A stretch of DNA of 64,000 nucleotides from Planctomycetota bacterium (GCA_024278955.1 JAJRSE010000050.1:1474-65473), one strand, 5' to 3'; counted from the stretch's first letter, positions 35,780 through 52,704 are shown. Numbers and translations: made by a program. Notes: generated from the letters alone by a model not told the origin.

Positions 35780-36910
35780 CTATTCTGAAATGACTTGGCC
35801 ATCGAATCGGCTTGATTTGTAGCTATGCACAAAGGGGTCGACATCGTAATTGATGCCATGAACCGATCCGTCGCAAAGTACCATGTTAAATGTTCCCGGG
35901 TGAGCACTTCCCCAAATAAAGAAGTTCTTTAGCTTTGGCGTATCGGACCGCGGCTGGTAATCCTCCTGGCTTGCGGGAGTGTCCCAAACTGGGCTCCACG
36001 CTACTTTCTGATTATCCCATTCGTAGCCACAATAGGCTGCTTGGTTGGTGTTAAATGAAGAACCCTCCTCTCCGGGAGTGGGAGCCCCTTGATACTCATC
36101 CGGATTGATATGCCTTTCGCCAAAGAGGTACGTGTTCGATACTCCATCTTCAATATTTCGCGAGCTGACCTCACTACGGCAAAAAACAGTACCGTTCTGG
36201 CAAAGTCGAACTCGGTTTGCCTCAAGCCCGGAGGTCGGATTAGCGCAAAAGTCCATCGGGGCCGAAGCTAATTTTTGCTTAAAAGTCGCTTCAGCTCCCG
36301 AATAATCACCAGACAAGGCACTGGGGGCTCCTGAGAACCAAGCTGAACCGTCCGATTGAAAAGTTGTGCCGGAGTTTGCGCCGTAGTCACCTCGGAAAAT
36401 TCCGCTCGACTGAGCTAAGGGCCGAACCCAGCTCCCTAGATTCTTTACCGGGTTATTCCAACTCGCTTGCGACAGTCCAGAAGTGCCTCGAGACGGGCAA
36501 GTATAGGCCTGGACCGGAGTTGTAATGAGTAGTGTCATCGCATCACGATGTGCCGCAGAATTGATCGCTTGCCCAGACCCTAAATCGCGAAGGTTCTGCA
36601 TCTCCATAAACGACAATAGGCTATACATCCACCCACCAGGCTGATTTTTTCCATAACCACGATTCGAGTCGGGGCCCCAATCGAAGCTCCAACCACCAGA
36701 AGGATAAAAGCCATAGGCGCTCTCGTGATTGAGTGCGGCTAGTCCCAATTGTTTGAGATTGTTTTGACATTGCATTCGACGAGCCGCTTCGCGAGCCGCC
36801 TGGACTGCGGGAAGCAGTAGGGCAACCAACACGCCAATGATGGCAATCACGACCAGGAGTTCGACGAGTGTAAATCCGCGAACTCGAGAGTTTCTTTGTC
36901 TCATAGTCAT
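35780..36910 (-). CDS. DUF1559 prepilin-type N-terminal cleavage/methylation protein
   Basis: [48 protein letters not shown]; DGVSNT; H-X9-DG ([14 protein letters not shown]). Confidence 0.95.
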
Positions 36911-37068
36911 CGCTAGTTTCCTGTCATAGTTCAGCTAGATGCATCCAAACACGGCTGCGCCGTCCGTTCGCCGAACCCGGGTGATCTGACGAACGAACGG
37001 CGAGAGCCCAACAAGCAAAGCTGCCATCTATCTCTATAATTCTGGTTTGTACGATTGGTTCCGACGAC

Positions 37069-37128
37069 AGCTCAACATTCGAGTCGGGTGCCACTGCTGG
37101 CTTGCCCAGCAGCGATGAAATACCAGAA
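37069..37128. repeat. CACTGCTGG-family REP, reverse orientation
   Basis: Reverse complement reads TTCTGGTATTTCATCGCTGCTGGGCAAGCCAGCAGTGGCACCCGACTCGAATGTTGAGCT; both ends match 8464-8480 and 8544-8587. Confidence 0.85.
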
Positions 37129-37183
37129 CCACTTCGCTCTATGTCAATTCTTGGCAGTTTCAACAAATAAGGCAATGCGAGAC

Positions 37184-37210
37184 AGCGCAGATATTACTCG
37201 GTTTTGCGCA
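37184..37210. promoter_or_regulatory. Candidate operator AGCGCA-N15-TGCGCA upstream of DUF1559
   Basis: Same spacing as the sites at 39928-39954 and 43771-43797. Confidence 0.55.
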
Positions 37211-37242
37211 TCAGTAGCCTGCGGCATACTGGACTCCGTATC

Positions 37243-37292
37243 AAAAAAAGGGGGCTCGCGGCTCGGCATAACGCCTACACCTTGAGCCCCCC
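37243..37292 (-). terminator. Intrinsic terminator candidate downstream of the PEP-CTERM pair
   Basis: GGGGGCTC/GAGCCCCC stem with an A7 run on + (T7 on -). Confidence 0.55.
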
Positions 37293-37356
37293 GTCTACCT
37301 CTATCAAGTTTCAAAAACTGTCAAGCAAATCATCTTAATCCTCGTGCTTGAAGACC

Positions 37357-38244
37357 TTATCTTCTTCGACGCCCCAACAGGACCAGACCCCCCAGACCGA
37401 GCAGCATCATCGAAGCAGGTTCAGGGATCGCAGTCACCGAGAGATTGTCAAAGATGACAAAGTTAGACTGTAACGGAGTAGCAACCGAAGCAAACAAGTC
37501 CGCGTAGCTAAGACTGACTTGGTTACCATCGGAGCCATCGTAGGCTGTGGCGATGATCGGCGTCCCGTTGAACGCATAAGTAATCGTGCCAGCAAGTACC
37601 TCGACGGTAAGCGTAGCCCATCGGTTCCCAGGGGAACCAGGGAAGTCTCCGTCAGGGAAAATCGCCTGGTAAGTATCTCCCGTAGCGTTGGTCGTGTTCG
37701 TACTGTTCAGGTAGGTACTGTCACCACTGGGAACCGCAAGAACCGTCGGGGTGCTGTGGCGGAAGTCAGAAGCCGAGCCTCCCTCACCGGTGAAGGAGAC
37801 AAAATGACCGGCACCAGCAACAGGAGAGAAAATTGTGTTCACCGAGACTCCATCGCCAGCAACTCCGACGTTACCGAATTCGGTTGTTCCAAAGGAAGCT
37901 CCCACATTCATGTAGACATCCACCGAGAGAAGGTAGTTTGGCGCAGTCACCCCGATATTATTATAAATGGTGACCGCATCACTCGCGCCGACCGTATCAT
38001 TGGCTGTAATCCTTAGCCCAAGAGTTGTCCCGCCGTTGGCCGAAGGGATACCATCAGCCGAGTAGTCGTAGGCGAAATCAATGGTGCCATCGTGGTCCAC
38101 GCCACCACCCACAATGGTGTAGTCGCCGGACGTATCGGTATCGAAATCATCAGTAATAATTACAGCCGAGGCCGAGGCCGAAATCATTAGCCCAGCCGCT
38201 ACAGCAAACAGGGAGCAGGTAGCAACACGAGTGGTCATTTTCAT
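37357..38244 (-). CDS. PEP-CTERM surface protein (paralog 2)
   Basis: Signal peptide; IPEPASMMLLGLGGLVLLGRRRR. Confidence 0.92.
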   Translation of the reverse strand: MKMTTRVATCSLFAVAAGLMISASASAVIITDDFDTDTSGDYTIVGGGVDHDGTIDFAYDYSADGIPSANGGTTLGLRITANDTVGASDAVTIYNNIGVTAPNYLLSVDVYMNVGASFGTTEFGNVGVAGDGVSVNTIFSPVAGAGHFVSFTGEGGSASDFRHSTPTVLAVPSGDSTYLNSTNTTNATGDTYQAIFPDGDFPGSPGNRWATLTVEVLAGTITYAFNGTPIIATAYDGSDGNQVSLSYADLFASVATPLQSNFVIFDNLSVTAIPEPASMMLLGLGGLVLLGRRRR

Positions 38245-38316
38245 AAGACATCCCCTAAAAAAGAAAAAAACAGTATCCTAAAACAAGTACTAACAAACCT
38301 GAAACCAACTTAACTA

Positions 38317-39615
38317 CTAGCGATTCCTTGCAGCTGCCAAGGCGTTGCGTGGCGAAGCGATAGCGTAGCAAAGGCCCGCAGCGACCATCAGCAACAGCCA
38401 AGTGCTAGGCTCGGGTACCGCGGCAATGCTCGCGCCCACTAGCGGAGCGGCTCCGCCGTATTGGGTTTCCCAAATCGCAAGGTCATCGGCATCGACGTCT
38501 AAGTCGCCGTCGGCGTCGCCATCGGAATTGAGAGCATCAGGCGTGCTAAGATTCCGTTGCCAAGTTAAAAAGTCTTGGCCATCGACGAGCCCACTGTCAT
38601 TGAAGTCGGCGTCGTCGACTGCGGTAATCGCATTGACTTCGATGTTGTCAATCAAGGTGAATAACAGATCGGCTGCATTGAGAGAGGTTGAAGAACCAAA
38701 GTTAATATCCGAACGACCAAAGGAGAGATTTCCCCCAAGGGTTGGTGTCGCGAAGTTGGTCATATCTACGGTAATGAGCTTGAAGCCGTTTACATACCAT
38801 TCGACCAAATCGCCGACCTTGCGGATCTCGTTCTGCTGCCAAGCAAATGCGGTCGCACCATCGCGAAGAATTCCGCTCATGTCCTGACCAGGAAAAGCAT
38901 CGATTACGGTTTGAGGAACCGTTCTGCCCGTTCCGAAAGTGTCGAGATAGAGCTGCTCAGGAGCATTACGGCCCCCAGCGTGATAAACAGCATTTGGCTC
39001 TGCCGGAGATGCATCGTAGCTGTTGTCGTCTTCAACCGAATAAGCGCGAAAGTCGGCACCAGAACCAGCATCGCCCGTGTAGGCAAAGAAGACGCCATCG
39101 GACGAGAGAATCGTCTGGCTCGTTGTTCCCTCGGATAGAATGCCGAACGTGGAAAGATTGGTCGATCCGCTACCGCCACCAGGGAATGGGCCCAGTGTAC
39201 TCGCCCACGCGTCGAAAGTTACAGAATAATCACCGGTAAGATTCAAGCTATTTGGGGAGGCGCTAAACCCGCCAAGTGCGTTCGAGAATAAACTGGCTTG
39301 TAGCTTCATGCCAATCGTCGTGCCACCAGTTGAGTTGGGGGCTGAAGGAATACCAGCCGCGCTGTAGTCGAACATGAAGCCCGAGAAATCGTCGTTGATA
39401 CCATCAACACCAGTAAAGGGGGCGGTATCGAAGTTGGTATCCATCGGAACAGAAGTCAGGAGGTTGTCAAATCCAACGCCCGCGTTGGCAGTCCAACGAC
39501 TAACGGCATTGAGGTCGTCGAAGTTTTCGGTGAAGAGCTGGCCTAAGGTCGGGCTAGCGCTGGTGACAAAAGCCAGCAGGCAGGCGGCGCAGCTGACAAG
39601 AGTTTTTGTTTTCAT
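38317..39615 (-). CDS. PEP-CTERM surface protein with dockerin-like repeat (paralog 1)
   Basis: Signal peptide; ADFNDSGLVDGQDFLTWQR..GDADGDLDVDADDLAIW; VPEPSTWLLL. Confidence 0.92.
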   Translation of the reverse strand: MKTKTLVSCAACLLAFVTSASPTLGQLFTENFDDLNAVSRWTANAGVGFDNLLTSVPMDTNFDTAPFTGVDGINDDFSGFMFDYSAAGIPSAPNSTGGTTIGMKLQASLFSNALGGFSASPNSLNLTGDYSVTFDAWASTLGPFPGGGSGSTNLSTFGILSEGTTSQTILSSDGVFFAYTGDAGSGADFRAYSVEDDNSYDASPAEPNAVYHAGGRNAPEQLYLDTFGTGRTVPQTVIDAFPGQDMSGILRDGATAFAWQQNEIRKVGDLVEWYVNGFKLITVDMTNFATPTLGGNLSFGRSDINFGSSTSLNAADLLFTLIDNIEVNAITAVDDADFNDSGLVDGQDFLTWQRNLSTPDALNSDGDADGDLDVDADDLAIWETQYGGAAPLVGASIAAVPEPSTWLLLMVAAGLCYAIASPRNALAAARNR

Positions 39616-40202: not shown

Positions 40203-43200
40203 CTAACGTCCGAAGAAGTCGTGTTCGTCAAAGTCGGCGAAAGCTTCTTCCAAGGACTGGCTAAGGCTCTCGGCTTGGTCCCGCTGCTGGCGGTACGACG
40301 GAAGCCGCGATTTGCCTTGCAAGCTATGCCGGCTGGACAAATCGTCCTGGAAGCTTTCATGCCCTAGCTCTCGGCCGTATTCCAGTGCAACTTCAGATGA
40401 CATGTCTGCCACTTCGCCGAAGGCTACGGACGCCTCCTGTGAAAACCAAAATAACCTTGCTGCGTTTCGTAATAAACCGGAATCAGAGGAATCTGAGGCC
40501 GACGTAGCAGCAACGGGCTCTGAGAGAGCGGCCTGCAAAGGAGCACTCACCGCTGCTGCTGCGAGGGCGGTTGTGGTGCCGTATTGAGTTTGCCAGATGA
40601 CGAGATCGTCGTTATCGACGGCCCCGTTGGCGTCGGCGTCGCCTTGTTCTAAAGTTGCCCCACCGCCTGGAGTGCCAAACCCGCGTTGCCATGAGAGGAA
40701 GTCGAAGCCGTTGACTGCGCCATCGGTGTTGAAGTCGGCAGTGTTGAGAGTAGTTGGGGCAGCCAGGACGATTCGTACCGCATCGGCAATCACCACGGAA
40801 CCACCTGAGCTTGCCTCTGCATCGAGCAATACGCTACGACTCCCCGAAGCAAAGTCAAAAGTTCCTAAAGAAACCCAGACCAAGCTATTGTTTTTTTGGT
40901 TAATACTTGCTTGCTGAACGCCATTGCCGGTATCGATTTGATATACCGTATCAGAGGTCCGATTGGCACCTGCAAGATATTGGACAAATACTTCGCCCTG
41001 GCCTGCGAAGGGCAAAGTGAAATCCCATTGAGCCGTTGCTACGTTGCTAGCAAGGGCAAAGCGGTAGGTCGTGCCATTGTACCCGGTGCTTCCCGAGGTG
41101 GTCCAGCTACCGGTTTCGCTATAGACGGAAGGGCCGTCGTCGTTGTCGAGAATTAGCTCAACATCGGATAGGGTCACCTGGAAATCGAAAAATTCGAGGA
41201 CCCTCGAAAATACTGAGTTTCTTAGGCTTTCGGAGGTGATCGTTTCAAACGGAAAGGCGAAGTTGACAATTTTGGTCGACCCACCGCTGTCGTACTGAGT
41301 TGCTGCTGTTCCGCCAGTTCCTCCTACGTATTCGAGCGAGCTAGTGGCCCCGCCCAAAGGAGAAATAACGTCGGGGAAATCAACGTTGTAAAACTGAGAG
41401 CCATCGTCGAACGAAAATGAAAGCCCCTCGAAAATCGAGCCCGAGGCACCCTGGACGTTGTAGGTGTTGGCGCCGTCAGAAACATAATCCGCACGTAGAG
41501 TGTTGTTATAAAACGACTGCCCGTTGCCAAGGCTATCGAGATCCCAGGCGACTTCCGATCCTGAGAAAAAGAGTTTTCCACCGCCAGATAAAAACGTGGA
41601 GATCAAAGCTTGTTCGGTAGGGTCGAATGTTTTGTCGTCAGAAGACTCCTCGCCGAGAATCCAAATCACGGCATCGTAATCGGTAAGCACGATGTCGCCA
41701 GAAATCACCTTCTCGTTCGATGCGGTATCGACAGCCAAACCCTCGGTAGAAGCTTCGATAGCCGAGGCAACCTGCACCGAGTAGTCGAAGGAATTACTTT
41801 GCCGAGGTCGGACTCGCTCTGCCCCCGATTGTACCGGGTTTTGTGCACGACCGAGGCGATCGAAACCATTGACAATCAAAATATCCTTGCCGGTGCCGTT
41901 AGGCAGTGCGGCGACCACTTCCGAGCCACGCCCCTCGCCGCCCGCGTTCACAGCAACAACTTTGAAGTAATAGGCTTCTTCACTCACATTGAGCCCGTTG
42001 TATGTGAAGCTGCTGGTAGCCCCTCCGGCCACAAAAGTACCGCCATCGAAGCCGTAGCCATTGGTTGACCCATAGACCATGTAGCCCGTGGCAGCATCTC
42101 CGTTGGCATCGCTAGCAACCGGCTGGTCCCAGGAAACCGTGACGCTCCCCACGCCAACCGACTCAGCCGCTACGCCCGAGACTTGGCCCGGAAGCATCGT
42201 GATCGGAGTCGCCCCGCCATCAACATTGTTGAAGTACTTCACCAAGCCTTGATAGGTGCCCCGGGCAATCGCATCGCGGACCTTAGGGTCGCGAATCATC
42301 TGAGTATCAAGCGTATTGTCGTGAAACCCCGTTTCGATAATCGTGGCATCAAACTCGCCGCCAATGCGATTATTGTTGATTTCCCCAAAGCCAGAACCGA
42401 GTGTAATATTTGCCCCTCTGTCATTCCAGTTATGCTCGAATGTCCCGTTTAGATCGACAAGATCGTCATTCACTTCTTGTGCTAAAGTACTGGCCAAGAG
42501 GAACTGATTCGGGGTTGGCTGACTCGAACCGCCGCCCGTGTTATATAACCCAAGCACGCCACGAGCAGTGGCAGTAGCAGGATTTCCGGTGGTTGCGTTC
42601 GAGTGGAAGATGACTAAGACGCGATCAGAAAGCGATCCATCCGCTTCGCGATTCATGTACTCTGAATAACGAGGGGCGAGAGAAACTGTTGCCGTACGAT
42701 CGTTGCTTGAGGTTCGATATTCGCTATCAGGAATCCCTTGAGAACGATCCACATGCCACTGAATCCAATAGAGCCCTGCTTCATCTTCGCGGGCGCGTCC
42801 CGAGATGGTTCCGCCCTTCACAATATCGCCCATGCCGTTGCCAAAGCGAATCATGTCGGCAATGACCACTTTTCCGGCCTCGGTAGAGCGGTTGCTTATC
42901 TCGACCGAACCCGTCGTCCCGGCGTCAAAGTAGTAGGTTCCCAGATAGACCAAACCGTTGCCCACGCGGCGATGGTTGACGGTCACTTCGGTCGACCCGC
43001 CCGAGTAGTTGACGCGGTAGACTTGATCGGCAGCGCGATCAGAGCCGTAACGCGCCCAAGAGTAAACAGGGTAAAAGCCAGCTTCAGAGATGTTGGGGCG
43101 ATATTCGGCGGTTGCGGTTTCGGTGAGTGAAGTCGAGGCAAACCGGTAAGGAACATCGCCGGGATCGCCAAAGTAAATCGACGAACCACTATCGCTCCAA

Positions 43201-43646
43201 GCACCAGAGAAGGTGACCTCTACGTCGTCGTTGTCGAGCACCACTTCGTTCGGTTGATTTCCAATCGGTCGCATAGGTACTACGGTAGCCCCTGCGCGGA
43301 AGAGATAGTCGGCAAAGAACGTCATCTGATCCTGGTTCCCCAGGTCTTCGATCATATTGAGCAGTAAAGGACGCTGAAAGTTCCAGTCGCCCGCATTGGG
43401 GAAATTGCCGGTAATTCCATGCCCGCCATTGACGTAAACAATTTTATCGGTCAGCGCACCGTCTGGTTGAGCGCCAACATCGACCAAGCCCGTAGCCGAC
43501 AAAGCAATCCGCGGCTCGAGGGGCTCGAATTTCAGCGACTTGCATTTTTGCGACTGACGAGTCCTAGGAGCTGATCCAAAGGTAAGCCAATCGTTCTGGG
43601 CGCAACGCCACATTGATTTGAATAATTTCTTCATCTGTCCATTCAC
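40203..43646 (-). CDS. Large secreted N-acetylmuramoyl-L-alanine amidase (Amidase_3-like) with Xly/golvesin-type CBM-like domains, Fn3 and dockerin-like repeat
   Basis: LEPRIAL leader; GHG..IED..FHSNA..IIETGFHD zinc/catalytic pattern; two LDN.D..G.W..S..ADA(I/V)RF/I domains; VSW..P..ATGY.VY Fn3; ADFNTDGAVNGFDFLSWQR. Confidence 0.8.
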   Translation of the reverse strand: MNGQMKKLFKSMWRCAQNDWLTFGSAPRTRQSQKCKSLKFEPLEPRIALSATGLVDVGAQPDGALTDKIVYVNGGHGITGNFPNAGDWNFQRPLLLNMIEDLGNQDQMTFFADYLFRAGATVVPMRPIGNQPNEVVLDNDDVEVTFSGAWSDSGSSIYFGDPGDVPYRFASTSLTETATAEYRPNISEAGFYPVYSWARYGSDRAADQVYRVNYSGGSTEVTVNHRRVGNGLVYLGTYYFDAGTTGSVEISNRSTEAGKVVIADMIRFGNGMGDIVKGGTISGRAREDEAGLYWIQWHVDRSQGIPDSEYRTSSNDRTATVSLAPRYSEYMNREADGSLSDRVLVIFHSNATTGNPATATARGVLGLYNTGGGSSQPTPNQFLLASTLAQEVNDDLVDLNGTFEHNWNDRGANITLGSGFGEINNNRIGGEFDATIIETGFHDNTLDTQMIRDPKVRDAIARGTYQGLVKYFNNVDGGATPITMLPGQVSGVAAESVGVGSVTVSWDQPVASDANGDAATGYMVYGSTNGYGFDGGTFVAGGATSSFTYNGLNVSEEAYYFKVVAVNAGGEGRGSEVVAALPNGTGKDILIVNGFDRLGRAQNPVQSGAERVRPRQSNSFDYSVQVASAIEASTEGLAVDTASNEKVISGDIVLTDYDAVIWILGEESSDDKTFDPTEQALISTFLSGGGKLFFSGSEVAWDLDSLGNGQSFYNNTLRADYVSDGANTYNVQGASGSIFEGLSFSFDDGSQFYNVDFPDVISPLGGATSSLEYVGGTGGTAATQYDSGGSTKIVNFAFPFETITSESLRNSVFSRVLEFFDFQVTLSDVELILDNDDGPSVYSETGSWTTSGSTGYNGTTYRFALASNVATAQWDFTLPFAGQGEVFVQYLAGANRTSDTVYQIDTGNGVQQASINQKNNSLVWVSLGTFDFASGSRSVLLDAEASSGGSVVIADAVRIVLAAPTTLNTADFNTDGAVNGFDFLSWQRGFGTPGGGATLEQGDADANGAVDNDDLVIWQTQYGTTTALAAAAVSAPLQAALSEPVAATSASDSSDSGLLRNAARLFWFSQEASVAFGEVADMSSEVALEYGRELGHESFQDDLSSRHSLQGKSRLPSYRQQRDQAESLSQSLEEAFADFDEHDFFGR

Positions 43647-43770
43647 AAAAAACGCCTCCGTAAGAAATAAACATACAGAGGCTAGTTGTGCTACCTGCGA
43701 CTAAGGTTCGCATCCCGCATAGGTGCCATTATAGCCAGACTAGCAAGTCTTCAAAGAATTAGGAAACAAT

Positions 43771-43797
43771 TGCGCAAGACTAACATTCTTCTGCGCA
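43771..43797. promoter_or_regulatory. Candidate operator TGCGCA-N15-TGCGCA upstream of the large amidase; TATAAT on - strand at 43728-43733
   Basis: TGCGCA AGACTAACATTCTTC TGCGCA. Confidence 0.6.
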
Positions 43798-43929
43798 AAA
43801 CAGCAGGTAACGGAGAGAGCCCTTCATTCGCAAGGCAGACAAGACGGTTGTTTCAAGTCTTGCTACCGTAGGCTCACCCCAAGAAGTTTTGCAGTAGAGG
43901 TTAAGCGGCATTTTTTTCGAGAGCTTGCA

Positions 43930-44904
43930 CTATCGTCGGAGGGTGACCGGGCTCTCAAGGATCGTCAGCTGTCGGTGATCGGCATCCAATTCCACCTCAA
44001 CTCCCAAAGGCAATGTCACATTGTCGGAAGAATGGCCTGCCGGGAAATTTTGCAGCACCGGAACACCTAAATCTGCGAAATAGTCGTCGAAAACCTCTGC
44101 CAGCGATAAGCTCTCTTCATCGGTTCCGGCGTCGCACCTAGAAAATTTCCCTAACAAGATGCCGTCCAACATGTCCAGTTTTCCCGCCAACCGTAGCTGA
44201 GACAAGAGCCGATCGATGCGGTATGGTGCCTCGGCAACGTCCTCCAGAAATAAGATGTTGCCTCGCGTCTCGATCTCGTATGGCGTTCCCATTACCGCAC
44301 AGACCAACGAGAGGTTTCCCCCAACCAATTGACCACGGGCAATGCCAGTTACCAGAGTTGAGAGCTTGTCTCGTTCAGACTGTTCGCTAAGAACCTCGTA
44401 CCCCGCCTGCTGAGAATCACGAAATCTTTTTGCCAACACAGCGCGCCAAAAAGTTTGGGACGACAGCTTCGTGAAACCTTTGGGCCTACCAAATCCATCC
44501 ATGGGATTAGGGCTATGAAAAGTAACCAGCCCAGTTTGTCTCTGAACAGCCAAGTGAAGCGCGGTAATATCGCTAAAGCCGGTCAGTATTTTCGGGTTCC
44601 GGCGGATGACTCCGTAGTCCAAAGAATCAAGGATCCGTGTCACGCCGGTCCCTCCTCGGGCAGGGAAAACTGCAGAAACTTCGGGATCGGCAAACGCCTG
44701 CATCAGCTCCTTCGCCCGGGTCTCATCGTCTCCAGCCAAATACCCTCGCGAGCGATAAATATCGCGGTATTGCTTTACCTTGAAACCTTCTTCCTTAATG
44801 CGTTTTATGGCAACTTCCGTACGAGCACGGTTCAGCAATCCTGCCGGAGCAACCAGCGCGATGGTGTCTCCCGGTTCAAGTGCTGGAGCAAATATTCGTT
44901 TCAT
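43930..44904 (-). CDS. ldcA: S66 LD-carboxypeptidase (muramoyltetrapeptide carboxypeptidase)
   Basis: GDTIALVAPAG, YLAG.DE.RA.EL, RGG.G, GFSDIT (Ser), GGNL, FLEDV (Glu), AGH (His). Confidence 0.93.
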   Translation of the reverse strand: MKRIFAPALEPGDTIALVAPAGLLNRARTEVAIKRIKEEGFKVKQYRDIYRSRGYLAGDDETRAKELMQAFADPEVSAVFPARGGTGVTRILDSLDYGVIRRNPKILTGFSDITALHLAVQRQTGLVTFHSPNPMDGFGRPKGFTKLSSQTFWRAVLAKRFRDSQQAGYEVLSEQSERDKLSTLVTGIARGQLVGGNLSLVCAVMGTPYEIETRGNILFLEDVAEAPYRIDRLLSQLRLAGKLDMLDGILLGKFSRCDAGTDEESLSLAEVFDDYFADLGVPVLQNFPAGHSSDNVTLPLGVEVELDADHRQLTILESPVTLRR

Positions 44905-44911
44905 TCGTTAC

Positions 44912-45469
44912 CTATCCAAACAAGAGGTATCCGAGAAATATCGCGGTAAAAATGCCTACCACGTCTGCGATCAGGCAGGCGGGAAGCGTGTGACGAATCT
45001 TCTTCACTTGTATCGATCCGAAATAGACCGTGATGATATAGAAAGTCGTCTCGGTGCTTCCCATCATCAGCGAAGCCGTATTTCCAAGAAAACTATCGGG
45101 ACCGTGCTCGTCAAACACTTCGAGCAATACCCCACGGGCACCGCTACCGGTAAGCGGCCGGGTCAATGCCAGGGGTAGTAAATCGAGCGATTCGCGATAG
45201 CCGCCTAAGCCAATCTGATCCATCCCCCATCCCATGACCAGCTTTATGTCTTCAAATGCGCCGCTGGCAACGAACATCTTTATCACAAACAAGATCGCAA
45301 CCAGATACGGGATAATCGTGATCGCCACGCTGAACCCCTCCTTCGCGCCAGTGACAAACGACTCGTACATGGGCACTTTTTTGTAGTACGCCCACAGAAT
45401 GATCAGCAGGATCACAAAATGGATGGTCCATTGGCTGAGCGTATCCAAAATAAGTTGTAGGGAATCCAT
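44912..45469 (-). CDS. spmB: SpmB/YjiG family membrane protein
   Basis: KVPMYESFVTGAKEG, IIPYLVAIL, RPLTGSGA, GPDSFLG, MGSTETTFY..VYFGS. Confidence 0.93.
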   Translation of the reverse strand: MDSLQLILDTLSQWTIHFVILLIILWAYYKKVPMYESFVTGAKEGFSVAITIIPYLVAILFVIKMFVASGAFEDIKLVMGWGMDQIGLGGYRESLDLLPLALTRPLTGSGARGVLLEVFDEHGPDSFLGNTASLMMGSTETTFYIITVYFGSIQVKKIRHTLPACLIADVVGIFTAIFLGYLLFG

Positions 45470-46224
45470 TATTCGCCCTCCCCGCTAGTTGATTTCTGTA
45501 GTTTGTCGCTCTTAGAAATCGCATATCGAGGTAGTTTTGAAAGCAACCGGACGGCAAATACCGCCACAATCGTGGTGACCATCGTTGTAAGGATGATGCC
45601 AAACACGGGGGCGGTTGGATTCTCGCTTCCGCTCAGAACGCGGTAGCCGATGATTCCGAAGGGGACAATGGTCACGTTGCTGGTATTGATCGCAAGAAAC
45701 ATGGCCATCGAGTTGGTTGCAGTATCCTTTTCGTTATTGAGTGTCTGCAGTTCTTGCATCGCCTTCAAGCCAAAAGGAGTCGCCGCGTTTTCGAGGCCAA
45801 GGATATTGGCAGAGATGTTCATCAGCATTGCCCCTTGCGCTGGATGACCGTCTGGCACATCGGGAAAAAGCCATCGCATCAAGGGCATCAACATACGGGC
45901 TAATGCATCGACCAGCCCCGCATCGCGAGCGATATTAAGCAAGCCCAGCCAAAGGGCCATGATGCCAATCAAACCGATGCAGATTTCCACCGAGACTTCC
46001 GCCGCATCGAAGGCCGCTTCGTTGATGTCGCGTCCCATTTCTTGTAGGTTGCGATGATCTCGATCTGAAGTCGAGGCTTCCTTTTCGGCTCCTTCTACAG
46101 CGGCAGACTCTTCGGAGCCTTTGGCTGAGAGTCCCGAGAATGTATTCACGCTGGCCTTGCCGAACCCATAGACAATGCCAATCAGAAGCAGCCAAAACCA
46201 AACCTTGTTGAGCATCCTACACAC
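45469..46224 (-). CDS. spmA: SpmA/YjiH family membrane protein (nucleoside-recognition Gate domain)
   Basis: MLNKVW, LWLGLLNIA..AGLV, LFPDVP..HPA, NISANILGL.NAATPFGLKAM.EL, FLAINTS. Confidence 0.93.
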   Translation of the reverse strand: MCRMLNKVWFWLLLIGIVYGFGKASVNTFSGLSAKGSEESAAVEGAEKEASTSDRDHRNLQEMGRDINEAAFDAAEVSVEICIGLIGIMALWLGLLNIARDAGLVDALARMLMPLMRWLFPDVPDGHPAQGAMLMNISANILGLENAATPFGLKAMQELQTLNNEKDTATNSMAMFLAINTSNVTIVPFGIIGYRVLSGSENPTAPVFGIILTTMVTTIVAVFAVRLLSKLPRYAISKSDKLQKSTSGEGE

Positions 46225-46259
46225 CTCCTGCTGCTTGTTTGTCTACCTGAGGGCAACTT

Positions 46260-47957
46260 TTACTCGGCAAAGCGGCTCGTAAGAAGCCTGCCTCCCGTGT
46301 GACTAAGAAGTTCGCCTTCGTTGAAAACCACCGTACCGGCGACCATCACCTGCTGCAAGTCGCTGCATGGGATAACCGAAGAAGATTTTTTTAACTCGTT
46401 GTCTTTAAGCAAAAGAAGATCGGCTTCCATTCCCAATTTGATGCTGCCTCGATTCTTGAGTCCCAAAAGATTCGCCATCTCCCAAGTCGATCGCGATAAA
46501 TTGGCCAGTTCAATCGATTCGTCAGTCGCGGAAACAAGGTCGTGCTCATTCAGCCGCGGTATCTTGAAATACTGTAAAAAGCTAGCGATATCTTCGGAGA
46601 CGTCCTTTGCGATAACTCCAAGGAGACCTAAAGAAGCCGCTCGAATAAGACGCTCCAAAATATCGGCAGGCGGCTTCTCTAAGCTGCTAGGTACGACCGC
46701 AATAAAACCTAAGTTCACCGGAAGGTTTAATCCTTCTTTCAGCCCAATAAGTGCATCCAACTGCGTAGGAACAGCCAAATCTAGCTGACCAATGACGCTT
46801 GTGACTCCCCGGGCTAGAAATTTCTTCGCTTGTTGCTGGTCAGGAAGCTTGCACGGGGAGATTTCCGGCGCGTAAACAATTTTGCCCGGAACGCAGATCA
46901 GCTTGGTCCCGTCGACCGAAATTTTTCCCGAAGTGATGCAAAGATCACCGAGATCTTCGATCTGCCCCGTCTCGCCCAAGTTAATCCCCAAGTCGGCAAC
47001 AAACGGAGTCTGTGCTCCGCCGTTGGCCACCGTAATTCCACGCAGCAAGAGATCGAAAAGATCGTGCTCTGCCGAGCGCGGAAGTGTATCGTATTCGGCA
47101 GGGTCCTCTTGCAAATATCTGCCCGTGGCAATGGCTTCAAGGGCGCTTACTAATCCGGTGAAATGCAGTTGTACTACTTGCGAAAGGTCAGAGTTGGGCA
47201 TAGTCCAGCCGCCCGCCTCGACCGTTAAAGTAGGAACCCCTTGCTGCTGCACCCATTCCCCAAAACATCGTGGCATGAAATCAGCGTCGTAGCGAGAAAT
47301 CATGCCTTCGCAGTAGGGGCGAACCGCTTGTAGGAACGAGACCGCCACCTGCTTTGCCCGACGTATCTCGTCGGTTTCGGTATTTTCGCGGTTGATCGGA
47401 GGAACAAGTAGCGAAACCGCTGCGACTTGCTGCGAAGTCGTATGGACCGAAGTTCTTGGTTTTTGGTTATGCAGATTGAGGGCAAAGTGGGGCTGAATAG
47501 TTTTTACCATTTCATTGAGCAGTTTCCCCTCGGGGCTCTGTAGGTGGAGAGCATCTCGGTTGATGTCGATGTCCTGCGCGTTTCGCCGAGTGGTACGCTC
47601 GACCCCGTCTGGGTTGAGCATAGGCAGCAAAAACAAGGTGCAACCAGACAAGATCGCCTTCGAGGTTGGGTGTTTAGGGGAACTTAACAAAAGGTTCACC
47701 AAGGCGAGCAGCACTGCGGTATGCGTAGGTTCGTTGCCATGCATTTGCGACCAAGCGAAAATGCGAACAGGGCCAGTACCAAGTTTAAGGAGAGGAATTG
47801 AACGACCTTCGTACGATTGGCCTACACAACTCAGCTCCACAGCCTCGGGGCTACCCGAATGCAGATTGCCGAGCAGGCCAACCAAATCATGATGCCGCAA
47901 CTGAGGCGGCGATTTGGTCGAAACCTGCACGTCAAGAAAATCTTCCCACAAAGACAT
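46260..47957 (-). CDS. M14 zinc carboxypeptidase (MpaA-like) fused to a degenerate amidohydrolase-like C-terminal half
   Basis: GQSYEGR, HGNE, NPDG, RRNA..DINRD, LNLH, TVEAG; C-half ADLGI..IEDLG, RGSIKLGMEADLLL, VMVAGTVV..G..GRLL. Confidence 0.82.
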   Translation of the reverse strand: MSLWEDFLDVQVSTKSPPQLRHHDLVGLLGNLHSGSPEAVELSCVGQSYEGRSIPLLKLGTGPVRIFAWSQMHGNEPTHTAVLLALVNLLLSSPKHPTSKAILSGCTLFLLPMLNPDGVERTTRRNAQDIDINRDALHLQSPEGKLLNEMVKTIQPHFALNLHNQKPRTSVHTTSQQVAAVSLLVPPINRENTETDEIRRAKQVAVSFLQAVRPYCEGMISRYDADFMPRCFGEWVQQQGVPTLTVEAGGWTMPNSDLSQVVQLHFTGLVSALEAIATGRYLQEDPAEYDTLPRSAEHDLFDLLLRGITVANGGAQTPFVADLGINLGETGQIEDLGDLCITSGKISVDGTKLICVPGKIVYAPEISPCKLPDQQQAKKFLARGVTSVIGQLDLAVPTQLDALIGLKEGLNLPVNLGFIAVVPSSLEKPPADILERLIRAASLGLLGVIAKDVSEDIASFLQYFKIPRLNEHDLVSATDESIELANLSRSTWEMANLLGLKNRGSIKLGMEADLLLLKDNELKKSSSVIPCSDLQQVMVAGTVVFNEGELLSHTGGRLLTSRFAE

Positions 47958-48002
47958 ACGATTGCTTTTCCGTACACGCCTAGTAAGTTTTAGTTTGAAA
48001 TT

Positions 48003-49049
48003 TCACTTTCCCAAAAGCTGGTTGGCTCCGTTGATTACCTTTTCCCAGTTAAATGCAGGGCCGGGGTCGGTCTTGTTTTTTTGGACATGGTAGTGCCCCA
48101 AAACTCCCTGGTAACCTCTCCATTGCCTGTCGGTCAGCTTGTGAGGAATGAGGTTACCCTGGTCGTCCTGGGGGTAAGTACAGTTGATTTTTGGGAAGAT
48201 GCGACATAGCGTCGCAGTGAGCTTGATGAGCGAATCATATTGTTCAGGAGTAAAATCGTACTGGTAAAGTTCAACGCCTTGAACCGTGCCCACGACAACC
48301 TCAGAGCGATCGGGGCGTCCAAAGAAGGGCGACTTCCGTAGAGCAAGAGTCCCCAGTGTACGAGGTGGGCGAAGCAGAGTTCCTCCTTCTTTGTCGGGGA
48401 AATACCAACGATCGAGCACCTCCTTGCCCTTAGCCGGATAAGCACCGATGCCCGCGATTTCGATGCCTATCGACCTCGAATTAGAGATCGTCGCGTGCCA
48501 GGCTCGTTCTTTGAGATCAAGAGTTTGATAGATGGTACCATCGATATCGAGCATGAAATGGACGCTCAACCCTCGACGGTCGTGCAATACTTTGAAACAA
48601 AGTTGGCTTACGCCGCAAACATCATAGTGCATAACAAACTGGTCGACGACCTCTTCGAGCATCGGAAGCGTCCACCCACCCCCTCGAACTTCTTCGAGTT
48701 GTTTCGCGGTGAGAAGATCCTTACGAATTCCATAGCGATTGGGACTATCGAGAGAGCCGTCTTTGACAGACTCTTTCCAAGAAGATTTCTCGAATTTTCC
48801 AAACCGACGCTCGACACGATAGGCGTCGTAGCCTTTGGGATCAGTCCACAAGACCACCGGAGCCGTCGTGTGAAAAAGCTGGCCACAGACCATAATCTCG
48901 TCGCCAGAACGCTCGATCTGTTCGCCGATCTCTACGCCCTGCGAAAAATGAGCAGCAGAAAGCAGCAGTAAAAACGCCATCAGCCCAGAGACACTCGGAA
49001 AGAGGCTCTTAGCCAAAACGGATCGAAAAGATTTTCTATTTTGCAGCAT
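48003..49049 (-). CDS. Secreted N-acetylmuramoyl-L-alanine amidase (Amidase_2/AmpD-like)
   Basis: Signal peptide; VMHYD, SVHF, ERAWHA, SIGIEI, GHYHV..KTDPG. Confidence 0.88.
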   Translation of the reverse strand: MLQNRKSFRSVLAKSLFPSVSGLMAFLLLLSAAHFSQGVEIGEQIERSGDEIMVCGQLFHTTAPVVLWTDPKGYDAYRVERRFGKFEKSSWKESVKDGSLDSPNRYGIRKDLLTAKQLEEVRGGGWTLPMLEEVVDQFVMHYDVCGVSQLCFKVLHDRRGLSVHFMLDIDGTIYQTLDLKERAWHATISNSRSIGIEIAGIGAYPAKGKEVLDRWYFPDKEGGTLLRPPRTLGTLALRKSPFFGRPDRSEVVVGTVQGVELYQYDFTPEQYDSLIKLTATLCRIFPKINCTYPQDDQGNLIPHKLTDRQWRGYQGVLGHYHVQKNKTDPGPAFNWEKVINGANQLLGK

Positions 49050-49172: not shown

Positions 49173-50579
49173 TTATTGGCGATCTGAATTCTTGATAATC
49201 GCCTCGCGTTCGGAAATTTTCTCGTAAAACCCACCGCTGATGGCTTCTTTCGGTTCGGGATTTCGGCCTTGGTCTTCGGTTTCTTCCTCCCACCGCTCGA
49301 GTTCCGTTCGTAGGTGCAGCATCACTTCCTTGTATCTCGGCCGTCCGGCTAGGTTCACCGTTTCCCAAGGATCGTTTTGGAGATCGTAAAGCTCTTCGGC
49401 TGGCTTCGTCGGACGCATAATGTGGGCTTGTGCCTCGGTCATCTTGCCCGATTTGAAGATTTCCCACAGCACCGGCCTGATTGGGCGTACCTTTTCGAGA
49501 TAGCCCTGATAGGTGAAGTACGGCACCTCGGGCATGTCGTTGCGAATGTATTTGAATTTTTTCGAGGTCACTGCGCGACTCTTGTCGCACACTTCGTCCC
49601 AACGATCTCGAGCGGCAAAGACGTATTTTCGTGGTTCTACCGATTCTTCCAGGAAAACGCGGCCCTGCATGTATTCGGGAATTCTGACACCCGCTAGGGC
49701 AAGAACTTGTGCCGACACGTCAATCATACTGACTAATTGCTCGCGTTGCTCGCCCGCAGGTTGCCCTCCTGGTAAGCGGATAATGCAGGGTACTTTAATT
49801 CCATCTTCAAACAAAAATCCCTTGCCACGATGCACGCAACGACCGTTGTCGCCGATGAAGATCACGACCGTGTTGTTGGCAAGCCCCTCACGTTCTAGGC
49901 GCTTGAGGATTTCTCCGACTTGAGCGTCGGCGGCCTCGATCTGATCGAGATAGCTGGCCCAGTCTTTGCGGATGGCTGGGTGGTCGGGCAAATAGGGAGG
50001 CAGAGAAACTTTGTTTTGGTCGACCGGATCGCTTGATATCTTGGAAATCTGCTCCCACCAGATGCCCCGATGGGTCACAGAGAGTTGAATCTGAGCGAAG
50101 AAAGGCTGGCCCTCTTTTCGCTTTGACCAATCGTTGCCGTTGAACAGTGGAAGTTCGCCCTTGGGCAAGTTGAAATTTAGGTCTGTTTTTTCTCCGTACC
50201 CGCATCCTACCGCGCAGAAATATCCGGCCTCTTGCAAGTACGCGGTGATCGGCCGGACTGGAGCAGGTAGCAAGAAGCCATCTTCACGATGGCTACGGTG
50301 TTGGTGCGCTCCGATACTGGTTTGATACATCCCTGTCATCATGGCTGAACGGTTGGTCGAACAGATGGGTGACGTGCAGTAGGCGCGATTGAACTGGATT
50401 CCTTTCGCGGCCATCTGGTCGAGCACGGGGGTTTGTATTGCCGGCGTGCCGTAACAGGCCAGATCGCAACCGATATCTTCGGCCATGATCCAAACGATAT
50501 TGGGACGATCTTGGCCCTTCGCGAATAGGGGAGCCGCAAATAGCGCACAAACTCCAATGAATTGAAAAAACTGTTGCAT
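49173..50579 (-). CDS. Sulfatase (S1 family)
   Basis: Signal peptide; RPNIVWIMAED, CSTNRSAMMTG, FIGDNG, GKGFLFEDG, SMIDV, EELYDL..DPWE. Confidence 0.92.
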   Translation of the reverse strand: MQQFFQFIGVCALFAAPLFAKGQDRPNIVWIMAEDIGCDLACYGTPAIQTPVLDQMAAKGIQFNRAYCTSPICSTNRSAMMTGMYQTSIGAHQHRSHREDGFLLPAPVRPITAYLQEAGYFCAVGCGYGEKTDLNFNLPKGELPLFNGNDWSKRKEGQPFFAQIQLSVTHRGIWWEQISKISSDPVDQNKVSLPPYLPDHPAIRKDWASYLDQIEAADAQVGEILKRLEREGLANNTVVIFIGDNGRCVHRGKGFLFEDGIKVPCIIRLPGGQPAGEQREQLVSMIDVSAQVLALAGVRIPEYMQGRVFLEESVEPRKYVFAARDRWDEVCDKSRAVTSKKFKYIRNDMPEVPYFTYQGYLEKVRPIRPVLWEIFKSGKMTEAQAHIMRPTKPAEELYDLQNDPWETVNLAGRPRYKEVMLHLRTELERWEEETEDQGRNPEPKEAISGGFYEKISEREAIIKNSDRQ

Positions 50580-51723: not shown

Positions 51724-52134
51724 TTACTTCCGCCAACTCGAAACGACGAGACCGTCTATCCACTCGAAGTGTGCCGTATTACCTGTTACCAAGGTGCGAT
51801 GCTGATTCAAAGCCGTGGCAGCGATGATGACGTCGGCATCCGTCCTTGGTTTACCGAGTTGCTTCCCTCTAGCCCACAAGCTAGCCGCTAGATCGAGGAT
51901 TTCGGCTGTGACTGGATAAATCGTCATGGACTGACAGAGCTGGTCAAAGGCGGACAGCTTCGTTGTGGCTTTAATCGCCCGTAGTCCACGCACGATTTCA
52001 AAGTACACCATCCCTGAAATAGCAAACTCGCCATGCTCACGAATATAGGCGGCAGCGTTAACAACTACGTCTTGGTTTTGTTGTTTCAGGATTTCTGACA
52101 GCGTGTCAGTATCCAGTACGCAGAGATCACTCAT
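51724..52134 (-). CDS. vapC: PIN-domain toxin
   Basis: LDTDTLSE, FEIVRG, AASLWA, DADVIIAATAL..TLVTGNTAHF. Confidence 0.92.
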   Translation of the reverse strand: MSDLCVLDTDTLSEILKQQNQDVVVNAAAYIREHGEFAISGMVYFEIVRGLRAIKATTKLSAFDQLCQSMTIYPVTAEILDLAASLWARGKQLGKPRTDADVIIAATALNQHRTLVTGNTAHFEWIDGLVVSSWRK

Positions 52135-52385
52135 AGGATCGGCTGGTCACGGCTAGGTGATCTTTGTATGGCTTCCTCGAAAAGTGCTGTCGTAGCATCA
52201 TCCAAGTCAGCAAGAATCGCATAGTCCTCGATTGAGGGTTGCGTCGTTTGCACATCTTCTGCGTCCACATCCAACACTTGTACGATGATGCGTTGATTGT
52301 CGGCAAGATGTTTGCCGAGAAACTGCTCGATGGCCACTCGTTCGTCAGCCGCCATGTCGGTGATATTGCGAGAAATAGTTTCCAT
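52131..52385 (-). CDS. Putative antitoxin (VapB-like partner)
   Basis: 84-aa acidic ORF (METISRNITD...) with ATGA overlap into vapC. Confidence 0.7.
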   Translation of the reverse strand: METISRNITDMAADERVAIEQFLGKHLADNQRIIVQVLDVDAEDVQTTQPSIEDYAILADLDDATTALFEEAIQRSPSRDQPIL

Positions 52386-52704
52386 GTTTGAATTATACCA
52401 CACATCGGCCGGCTCACACTGCGGTAGCCCACCACTTTCGGACAGAGTCGGGACCTTCGGTACTAGCTCCGAAGGAGATTTTAGATGGACATCCCGAAAG
52501 CCGATGGCGCACATCGGAAAACTACCCTCACAATTAGACGGGGCGCAAGCAGCGTAGGGGCGTCTTATTCAAAATTCCTACGTGGCGAAATCGCCCTGGC
52601 GCGAATAGAGTCGTTTGACATCGTGCAATCCTTCCAAAATGACCAATCCGGTAGTCTACCGAATTTTTCGTGGTTAGGACGCACAGCCAAGCGTTGGCCG
52701 GTAC

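Follow-up and report, generated by a model that had tools for sequence, protein, structure and literature searches.

SpmA and SpmB beside peptidoglycan stem-peptide enzymes: a candidate peptide importer in a planctomycete gene cluster

In a 64,000-nucleotide stretch of DNA from a Planctomycetota bacterium (GCA_024278955.1, JAJRSE010000050.1:1474–65473; the whole stretch is hereafter the window), six genes at positions 40203–49049 bring together the membrane proteins SpmA and SpmB (jointly, SpmAB) and enzymes that act on peptidoglycan stem peptides. We favour, at a probability of about 0.55, the view that this cluster is a unit for the salvage and catabolism of stem peptides, in which SpmAB would import the free peptide. 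A preliminary description of the window had already read SpmAB as an importer, and the analysis presented here supports that interpretation. Genes for a cytoplasmic LD-carboxypeptidase lie beside SpmAB in at least five phyla, and the enzymes encoded around SpmAB fall into an exported set that would free the peptide and a cytoplasmic set that would consume it.

In the scheme we propose, the exported Amidase_2 enzyme would act outside the cytoplasmic membrane and detach stem peptides from muramic acid, and such amidases, together with DD-carboxypeptidases that are exported in relatives, would yield free tetrapeptide. SpmA and SpmB would form one secondary transporter, probably ion-coupled and of the elevator type, and would carry the free peptide into the cytoplasm; its cargo would most likely be the tetrapeptide L-Ala-gamma-D-Glu-mDAP-D-Ala (mDAP, meso-diaminopimelate), and possibly the tripeptide too. 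The S66 LD-carboxypeptidase would then take D-Ala4 off the tetrapeptide, the M14 enzyme (NlpC/P60 in other phyla) would split off mDAP to leave L-Ala-D-Glu, and the products would feed LysA, alanine racemase, and a dipeptide epimerase or DgcN/DgcA.

The biochemical role played by SpmA and SpmB has stood open since the 1990s. The pathway outlined above is a known one; what would be new is an importer drawn from the Gate family, and judged by its sequence context SpmAB is the strongest contender so far for a new importer of cell-wall peptides. This would be the first substrate proposal for the SpmA/SpmB family, which forms 3020 clusters at 50% identity (E <= 1e-3) spread across many phyla. If it is true, SpmAB would be a new transporter class for peptidoglycan recycling and an uptake route for D-amino-acid-rich wall debris in abundant bacteria of sea and sediment (Pirellulales, Marinimicrobia and Gammaproteobacteria) and in gut Fusobacterium and Romboutsia, and spmAB could serve as a genetic marker of wall-debris uptake in metagenomes. 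Refractory organic nitrogen has one of its major pools in such debris, from which immune-active muropeptides also come.

The cluster comprises the following open reading frames (ORFs), with domains assigned by Pfam and NCBIfam and lengths in amino acids (aa):

48003–49049, minus strand: Amidase_2, a predicted exported N-acetylmuramoyl-L-alanine amidase (AmiD/AmpDh2-like), 348 aa (Pfam)
46260–47957, minus strand: M14 metallocarboxypeptidase, predicted cytoplasmic, whose C-terminal domain is amidohydrolase-like and non-catalytic, 565 aa (Pfam)
45469–46224, minus strand: SpmA, Gate domain, 251 aa as the ORF; 45469–46215 from the probable start, 248 aa (Pfam)
44912–45469, minus strand: SpmB, Gate domain just under threshold, 185 aa (Pfam)
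43930–44904, minus strand: LD-carboxypeptidase of family S66, LdcA-like, predicted cytoplasmic, 324 aa (Peptidase_S66 N and C domains)
40203–43646, minus strand: secreted multidomain protein with two Golvesin_C domains, fn3, a dockerin-like segment and an Amidase_3-like core, 1147 aa (Pfam)

All six ORFs are co-oriented at 40203–49049, as the preliminary description had it. The first five are separated, in order, by 45 nucleotides (nt), 44 nt, a 1-nt overlap of the SpmA stop by the SpmB start, and 7 nt, and 283 nt then separate the LdcA-like gene from the sixth; because of this last gap we regard the first five as operon-like and the 1147-aa gene, which lies outside that block, as probably a unit of its own. 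A promoter and terminator scan of 39.6–51.2 kb gave counts not above those of shuffled sequence, and operon boundaries were not callable from it. SpmA and SpmB are the sole polytopic membrane proteins of the cluster; for proteins of this kind the earlier statement that they are its only membrane proteins holds. None of AmpG, NagZ, DgcN/A, M19, S11, NamZ, LysA and related genes lies within the 64-kb window. An identical 6-kb contig is present in a Planctomycetota metagenome-assembled genome (MAG; GCA_024278035.1), and DNA contigs of close strains are present in hydrothermal-vent metagenomes.

Linkage of SpmAB to stem-peptide enzymes

We scanned one genome per species with an SpmA alignment and obtained 80 loci, which were compared with the window proteins by tblastn and phmmer and whose neighbouring ORFs were clustered. 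Neighbour genes were called by conservation-supported ORF choice, as greedy longest-ORF calling is unsuited to GC-rich loci. The core M14(565 aa)–SpmA–SpmB–S66 is kept in about 40 Pirellulales-type loci, with M14 directly upstream of SpmA in about 38. The outer genes of the window cluster are far less constant: Amidase_2 adjoins the core only in L001 and L009, and L006, L012 and L027 are the only loci with the 1147-aa gene downstream of LdcA. Further neighbours that recur in these 80 loci, annotated with Pfam and NCBIfam, are as follows:

MR_MLE, 20 loci: best model N-acetyl-D-Glu racemase DgcA, then L-Ala-D/L-Glu epimerase
DUF1611, 19 loci: DgcN
Beta-lactamase2 with PG_binding_1 and Peptidase_S11, 18 loci: DD-carboxypeptidase
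GH3, 16 loci: NagZ-like
Peptidase_M19, 15 loci: dipeptidase
MFS, 15 loci: best model AmpG family
SIS, 15 loci: MurQ-like
Beta-lactamase-family and NamZ fusion, 14 loci: AmiE/NamZ-like
AnmK, 14 loci: anhydro-MurNAc kinase
SSF, 12 loci: sodium:solute symporter
Na:Ala symporter, 10 loci: sodium:alanine symporter
Pyridoxal-phosphate (PLP) enzyme, 10 loci: D-Cys-desulfhydrase family
BadF-type kinase, 10 loci: sugar kinase-like
LysA, 6 loci: diaminopimelate decarboxylase, above the equivalog cut-off

In relatives the core gains exported enzymes (DD-carboxypeptidase, AmiE-NamZ and M19), cytoplasmic ones (DgcN/DgcA or dipeptide epimerase, LysA and alanine racemase) and a sugar branch of AmpG, NagZ, AnmK and MurQ. 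In two Pirellulales MAGs, eleven co-directional genes run head to tail (L022, 54–13804; L046, 3–13804): AmpG-like, NagZ, DgcN, DgcA, S11/beta-lactamase and exported M19, then M14, SpmA, SpmB, LdcA and the Na:Ala symporter. Judged by gene content, this array is a candidate for a complete peptidoglycan-utilization locus. The same picture emerged on a 5.6-Mb Bythopirellula contig whose genes had been called independently and bore precomputed Pfam labels. M14 and LdcA are missing from the Phycisphaerae loci, in several of which an AmiE/NamZ-like or MR_MLE gene adjoins SpmAB.

Shared ancestry could explain synteny within one order, and we therefore built a second query from non-planctomycete SpmA only (14 sequences, 36–56% identical to the window SpmA) and scanned metagenome contigs, which gave a further 80 loci with G+C contents from 28 to 64%. 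An S66 gene adjoins SpmAB in 33 of these, in the arrangements LdcA–SpmA–SpmB, SpmA–SpmB–LdcA, divergent LdcA/SpmAB and SpmA–SpmB–S13–LdcA. Alanine racemase is a neighbour in nine of the 80 and S13 DD-carboxypeptidase in eight; six each have an amino-acid permease or an AmiE/NamZ-like gene; five each have Amidase_2, a GATase1/C26-like protein, an M20 peptidase or MR_MLE; LysA occurs in four. A YkfC-type SH3b-NlpC/P60 protein is encoded in five loci and a second type in three. Taxa were placed by exact-sequence look-up and homologue names, and they comprise, with the Planctomycetota, Gammaproteobacteria (Marinihelvus fidelis and MAGs), Romboutsia and other Eubacteriales (Bacillota), Fusobacterium (Fusobacteriota) and Marinimicrobia. 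S66–SpmAB linkage therefore spans at least five phyla and takes the form of four gene orders.

Precomputed annotations confirmed three of these arrangements. M. fidelis encodes, in order, a lipoprotein with Amidase_2 and PG_binding_1, SH3b-NlpC/P60, MR_MLE, S66, Gate and Gate; nearby are two alanine-racemase-fold genes, an amino-acid permease, an Asp/Glu racemase, a MurR-like regulator, a lipoprotein of the beta-lactamase family and an M14 protein 47% identical to Escherichia coli MpaA. Outside the Planctomycetota, Amidase_2 lipoproteins are repeatedly encoded next to SpmAB. Fusobacterium mortiferum has Gate–Gate–S13–S66, and in Romboutsia M55 and M20 genes on the opposite strand are followed by Alr–Gate–Gate–S66. 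A Eubacteriales MAG from the first scan (L068) has LysA–SpmA–SpmB–LdcA.

In the 161 loci pooled, about 2.0 Mb of DNA, 78 contain an S66 gene, and in 72 of the 78 it lies within 260 bp of SpmAB. By our own estimate a genome carries about one or two S66 genes, at which density chance would give about one in 2.0 Mb. The preliminary description had proposed neighbourhood statistics as a check and had named a lack of cell-wall peptidases near spmAB as contrary evidence; S66 adjoins SpmAB in 72 of the 161 loci, which cover at least five phyla, and such peptidases are thus enriched there. Almost all recurrent neighbours other than S66 are stem-peptide enzymes, the minimal recurrent unit is LdcA with SpmAB alone, and no membrane component other than SpmAB accompanies LdcA from phylum to phylum. 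That these genes are neighbours by coincidence, or through inherited synteny with no functional coupling, draws on the fact that most genome loci come from one order, Pirellulales. We consider it very improbable: the linkage recurs in differing orders and orientations and with different partner enzymes of the same chemistry, and the closeness of S66, taken together with the non-planctomycete scan, effectively refutes it. With M14–SpmA–SpmB–S66 in about 40 related genomes and S66–SpmAB in other phyla, the arrangement is far from what chance would produce.

Cluster enzymes and their compartments

The Amidase_2 protein scores 74.9 bits against a Pfam cut-off of 26 (E = 1e-20). Its nearest solved relatives are AmpDh2 and AmpD, it carries a hydrophobic N-terminal segment at residues 11–29 (signal or anchor), and it does not reach the AmpD equivalog cut-off (51 versus 143 bits). 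The S66 protein scores far above the cut-offs in both its N domain (131.6 bits) and its C domain (135.1 bits), with E about 1e-39. Against the NCBIfam model for muramoyltetrapeptide carboxypeptidase, NF008424, it reaches 182 bits (E = 1e-53) where the equivalog cut-off is 378, and it is on this measure a member of the family, not a curated equivalog of the E. coli enzyme. GFSD, EDV and GH motifs are visible in its translation; we take these to mark the positions of the catalytic triad.

The preliminary description had called the M14 protein MpaA-like. Its M14 fold and catalytic residues stand: Peptidase_M14 matches residues 29–135 (64.4 bits, E = 1.7e-17), and H73, E76, R124, N133, R134, H163 and E247 are conserved in 34 orthologues, the zinc ligands, the substrate-binding Arg/Asn and the catalytic Glu being kept. 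Kinship with MpaA is only distant. The protein is 26% identical to the MpaA-like M14 of M. fidelis (E = 6e-12) and matches E. coli MpaA itself with E = 3e-4 across 62 residues; its best Protein Data Bank (PDB) matches are 3l2n and 4a37, not MpaA, and its 565 aa with an added domain depart from the single-domain architecture of about 240 aa. 'MpaA-like' is therefore the name of a proposed job, not of a family membership. The simplest reading of the sequence is a carboxypeptidase that would take off the mDAP exposed by LdcA.

The C-terminal part of the M14 protein (about 270 aa, within 46260–47100) has amidohydrolase-like N- and C-terminal sandwich motifs and is fused in all Pirellulales orthologues. 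No His is conserved in this domain among the 34 orthologues, and it is probably structural. We considered it as a second, IadA-like enzyme and rejected the idea, as it has neither conserved His or metal ligands nor significant similarity to IadA.

The sixth gene had been described as a secreted Amidase_3, and its match to that family falls short of threshold: the 1147-aa protein scores 20.9 bits against an Amidase_3 cut-off of 27, with only profile positions 68–172 aligned, and the gene is kept in only three or four relatives. Golvesin_C scores 192.5 bits and a dockerin match is weak. The C-terminal Golvesin_C resembles the C-terminal module of xanthan lyase (PDB 6f2p), and no solved amidase was matched. 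From the alignment, Golvesin_C appears to be inserted within a divergent Amidase_3-like core; deleting the insertion in silico raised the Amidase_3 score to 24.1 bits, still below 27, and the rescue was set aside. It is possible but unproven that the gene is an accessory of the cluster. A motif, ...FEPLEPRIALSA..., lies near the start of the protein; the core is followed by fn3, the second Golvesin_C and a dockerin-like segment, the last of these at the protein's end.

Export was called by a simple hydrophobicity test of N-termini. The window Amidase_2 has an export signal or lipobox, as do Amidase_2 and S13 proteins from other phyla, several of them bearing L-x-G-C lipoboxes; export signals are also present in 13 of 18 S11, 13 of 17 M19 and 12 of 14 AmiE-NamZ proteins. 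Such signals are absent from the window LdcA, from 41 of its 42 orthologues and from all metagenome copies, and likewise from the window M14 and 37 of the 38 proteins in the M14 set. DgcA, DgcN, the PLP enzyme, LysA, NagZ, AnmK, MurQ, alanine racemase, M20 and MR_MLE also carry none. Amidases and DD-carboxypeptidases are thus exported and LdcA, M14, epimerase and racemases are not, so that a peptide must cross the membrane between them; as predicted from the N-termini, it is freed outside and consumed inside.

The cargo might instead be a sugar-linked muropeptide, either MurNAc-peptide or anhydromuropeptide, with SpmAB replacing AmpG and the peptide being freed in the cytoplasm. The window has no AmpG-like gene, NagZ, AnmK and MurQ genes are present in related arrays, and LdcA also acts on MurNAc- and UDP-MurNAc-tetrapeptides, all of which would suit such a cargo. 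We nevertheless think it quite unlikely, given that the amidases linked to SpmAB, of the Amidase_2 and AmiE-like kinds, are either exported or lipoproteins and would free the peptide outside, and that no cytoplasmic AmpD-type amidase is linked. Moreover, an AmpG-family MFS gene shares the same co-directional arrays with SpmAB in relatives, which argues for different cargoes. The AmpG-independence claimed in the preliminary description is for the same reason not borne out in relatives. AmpG serves the same pathway, bringing wall fragments to cytoplasmic NagZ, AmpD and LdcA, and as an MFS protein is unrelated in sequence to SpmAB; from their co-occurrence SpmAB looks like a second route parallel to AmpG, probably for sugar-free peptides, and not its replacement.

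SpmA and SpmB as a putative carrier

SpmA matches the Pfam Gate domain (PF07670) at 55.1 bits against a cut-off of 29.6 (E = 1.1e-14), and hydrophobic helices are predicted along it. Its true start is probably the ATG at 46215, since that form is recorded on a public contig. SpmB scores 26.4 bits (E = 1e-5), just below the Gate cut-off, and matches an NCBIfam YjiG-type model with E = 4e-5. The Gate-type domains ascribed to both proteins in the preliminary description are thus above threshold for SpmA and just short of it for SpmB; the two are nevertheless a pair of adjacent small polytopic membrane proteins of the Gate kind. Many of the 6262 relatives of SpmA are named spore maturation protein A; for those 57–99% identical, JGI and NCBI use this name or that of nucleoside recognition domain protein, and fused relatives are named SpmA/SpmB by their sources. 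Neither protein has the MFS or ATP-binding cassette (ABC) architecture of known importers (AmpG; Opp/MppA and YejBEF-YepA): both match only Gate.

SpmB follows SpmA in all 161 loci, and the two are fused in Verrucomicrobia and other lineages. Natural fusions of about 430 aa are found in many lineages, from which we conclude that the two proteins act as one unit. An AlphaFold2 model of a Verrucomicrobia fusion (pLDDT 72.6, pTM 0.73) was compared with the PDB by Foldseek, and its top matches are solely elevator-type transporters, namely YdaH/AbgT, NaS1, VcINDY, vcCNT and CNTnw (4r0c, 8w6n, 6okz, 3tij and 5l2b; probability 0.98–1.0). The modelled likeness of fused SpmAB to elevator-type transporters is consistent but weak. 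AbgT/YdaH, DASS (VcINDY, NaS1) and CNT are the best structural matches, and CNTs share the Gate domain; no solved structure is matched at sequence level, and membership of any of these families would be tentative.

Beside these results we note a feature peculiar to planctomycete SpmA. Residues 27–60 or so, after the first helix, form an acidic, low-confidence loop that is absent in other phyla; it spans about 30–45 residues in the window protein and more than 100 in P0081.

A number of results weigh against SpmAB as a stem-peptide importer. Transport, its direction and its substrate are each inferred, while what the sequences show is gene content, conserved linkage, the distribution of export signals and intact M14 catalytic residues. 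The fold matches of the fusion model have template-modelling (TM) scores of only 0.26–0.42, E values of 1e-3 to 2e-2 and identities of 11–16%; the model of SpmA alone (pLDDT 73) had no PDB fold match (best E = 0.9), and this half-transporter model is uninformative. Sequence and profile searches of SpmA against solved structures gave no relative. A Rosetta-stone search found no SpmA or SpmB fused to a cell-wall enzyme, long SpmA homologues being SpmA–SpmB fusions or carriers of unrelated domains (Kelch, LTD). A search for transcription in related strains returned DNA metagenome contigs only and no RNA runs. The linkage to wall enzymes is common, not universal, because housekeeping or unrelated neighbours are found in Verrucomicrobia, KSB1-type and some unclassified loci. 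In one Verrucomicrobia locus (L166:8001–10236) EamA and alpha/beta hydrolase genes come before a fused 429-aa SpmAB and an SBF/Mem_trans carrier comes directly after it, with no cell-wall genes nearby; the neighbours of SpmAB in loci of the KSB1 type, and in some that are unclassified, are PriA, GcpE, thiamin pyrophosphokinase or an S9 peptidase. Some arrays encode further carriers (AmpG-like MFS, Na:Ala symporter, SSF, NhaC-like, amino-acid permease), which could take part of the traffic. Finally, release or conversion of D-Ala is common to all of the most constant partners, and a D-Ala-related substrate is the main rival.

According to this rival, SpmAB carries a smaller wall solute, such as D-alanine, D-Ala-D-Ala, mDAP or a dipeptide of the kind of L-Ala-D-Glu, by import once it has been trimmed outside the cell, or by export. 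D-Ala release or conversion is the common denominator of LdcA, S11, S13, the M55 D-aminopeptidase and exported M19; alanine racemase and the Na:Ala symporter are found in some of the loci, and Bacillus subtilis spmAB follows the DD-carboxypeptidase gene dacB (PMC13188902). We rate a smaller solute as improbable, though worth serious consideration, because LdcA is cytoplasmic and frees D-Ala inside, where an importer of D-Ala needs no coupling to it, because LdcA is linked some 3.5 times as often as alanine racemase (33 versus 9 of 80), and because LdcA with SpmAB alone makes up the minimal unit. Dedicated alanine or amino-acid carriers also share arrays with SpmAB, which argues for distinct substrates.

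SpmAB may, alternatively, not be an importer, and could act as an exporter, as a sensor or regulator of wall turnover or as a membrane partner of the enzymes, with uptake left to an unlinked Opp/Dpp-type system. A 2022 survey gives the biochemical mechanism of SpmA and SpmB as unknown, and their function is not known in any organism (bioRxiv 2022.02.25.481979); the fold matches are weak, the B. subtilis phenotype is one of spore core hydration with no nutritional defect, and many family members have no cell-wall neighbours. Transporters (CNT, FeoB and SpoVV; PMC5629000) are, however, the only proteins in which Gate domains are known to date, the top fold matches are exclusively secondary transporters, and the compartment split requires an importer, for which the recurrent neighbours of the sampled arrays include no ABC peptide system. 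We therefore hold a non-importing role to be unlikely.

Comparison with known systems, and surroundings of the cluster

Import of stem peptides by SpmAB would place the cluster beside E. coli MppA–OppBCDF/LdcA/MpaA/YcjG, whose chemistry and order are the same: peptide is imported, D-Ala is removed and an M14 enzyme cuts the gamma-D-Glu-mDAP bond, and an epimerase for L-Ala-D-Glu is likewise present in relatives of the window cluster. We confirmed the E. coli mpaA–ycjG and mppA loci. E. coli uses an ABC importer with a binding protein where we propose a two-part Gate-domain secondary carrier, and its MpaA is only distantly related to the two-domain window enzyme. Untrimmed tetrapeptide in the cytoplasm is said, from work by Templin and colleagues in 1999, to be mis-incorporated and to be lethal in E. 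coli ldcA mutants; tight coupling of LdcA to the importer would be explained if imported tetrapeptide is harmful unless LdcA trims it. Window-type clusters differ from E. coli recycling in that no Mpl ligase is linked and catabolic DgcN/DgcA, LysA and racemases are, which points to consumption of wall material, be it the cell's own or foreign, and not its re-use.

The enzyme set of B. subtilis ykfABCD/dpp (LdcA-like YkfA, epimerase YkfB, NlpC/P60 protein YkfC and DppA) is matched in the arrays of Gammaproteobacteria and Marinimicrobia, which share S66, MR_MLE and SH3b-NlpC/P60, and Romboutsia adds M55/DppA and M20. The difference lies in the transporter, Dpp/YkfD being an ABC system in whose place the arrays have SpmAB; the window cluster, for its part, would use M14 for the gamma-D-Glu-mDAP bond that is the target of YkfC. 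The earlier statement that in B. subtilis, too, the pair stands beside a peptidase gene is confirmed: dacB is upstream of both spmA and spmB, whose loss raises the water content of the spore core (PMC13188902). By Pfam and source names these proteins belong to the same family, the pair following a D-Ala-releasing carboxypeptidase gene; S11 and S13 DD-carboxypeptidases, like dacB, are recurrent SpmAB neighbours elsewhere. The window cluster differs in that its host phylum forms no endospores and its linked enzyme is a cytoplasmic LD-carboxypeptidase.

We tentatively suggest, as a possibility with rather less than an even chance, that SpmAB is a third, widespread class of peptidoglycan-recycling permease beside AmpG and the ABC systems of Opp/MppA type, specific for free stem tetrapeptides, and that this also explains the Bacillus spore phenotype. 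DacB would trim cortex stems to tetrapeptides, CwlD and LytH would cut these off, and mother-cell SpmAB would clear the released peptides from the intermembrane space; uncleared, they would stay as osmolytes and the spore core would dehydrate incompletely. If true, this would give a concrete explanation for the spore-dehydration defect of spmAB mutants.

Two further Gate systems bear on the comparison. Genetic evidence supports SpoVV as a transporter of dipicolinate, and by HHpred it is similar to CNTs (PMC5629000); SpoVV/YlbJ has the Gate domain too, and the substrate of SpoVV, the small dicarboxylate dipicolinate, is certainly different. The E. coli yjiH–yjiG–iadA operon, which the preliminary description had cited as a second case of these proteins beside a peptidase, exists in K-12 (L162:6355–8681), with yjiH and yjiG overlapping by 4 nt and iadA 12 nt later. 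YjiH and YjiG are remote Gate relatives, not orthologues, of the window proteins (SpmA versus YjiH, E = 0.25; SpmB versus YjiG, E = 4e-4 over 39 residues). IadA is an isoaspartyl dipeptidase, acting on an unusual peptide bond, and the yjiH–yjiG pair precedes it much as SpmAB stands beside a peptidase, hinting that atypical peptides may be a theme of the wider family. A 2024 review lists AmpG, Opp/MppA, MurP, NagE, CadB and YejBEF-YepA as known muropeptide importers, with SpmAB not among them (PMC11509177). No paper that ties SpmAB, YjiHG or the Gate family to muropeptides turned up in our own full-text literature search, subscription journals being outside its scope.

The surroundings of the cluster hold four other features. 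A sulfatase gene (49173–50579) lies 123 nt upstream on the same strand, and a sulfatase also adjoins the core in L007 and L060; sulfatase genes are numerous in planctomycete genomes, and the adjacency may be chance. In three metagenomes the intergenic segment 50931–51159 is covered about 5–20 times as deeply as the sequence around it, many contigs break at its edges, and it is made of repeated TTTTGTCCCATGGG / GGGACAAAAT-like motifs, which suggests a multi-copy intergenic repeat; it contains no tRNA. On the other side of the cluster, translations of 35780–39615 read as a DUF1559/prepilin-type protein and two secreted proteins with PEP-CTERM tails, one of them with a dockerin-like segment. At 51724–52514, again as read from translations, a PIN (VapC-like) ORF overlaps a small upstream ORF, and the two resemble a toxin–antitoxin pair.

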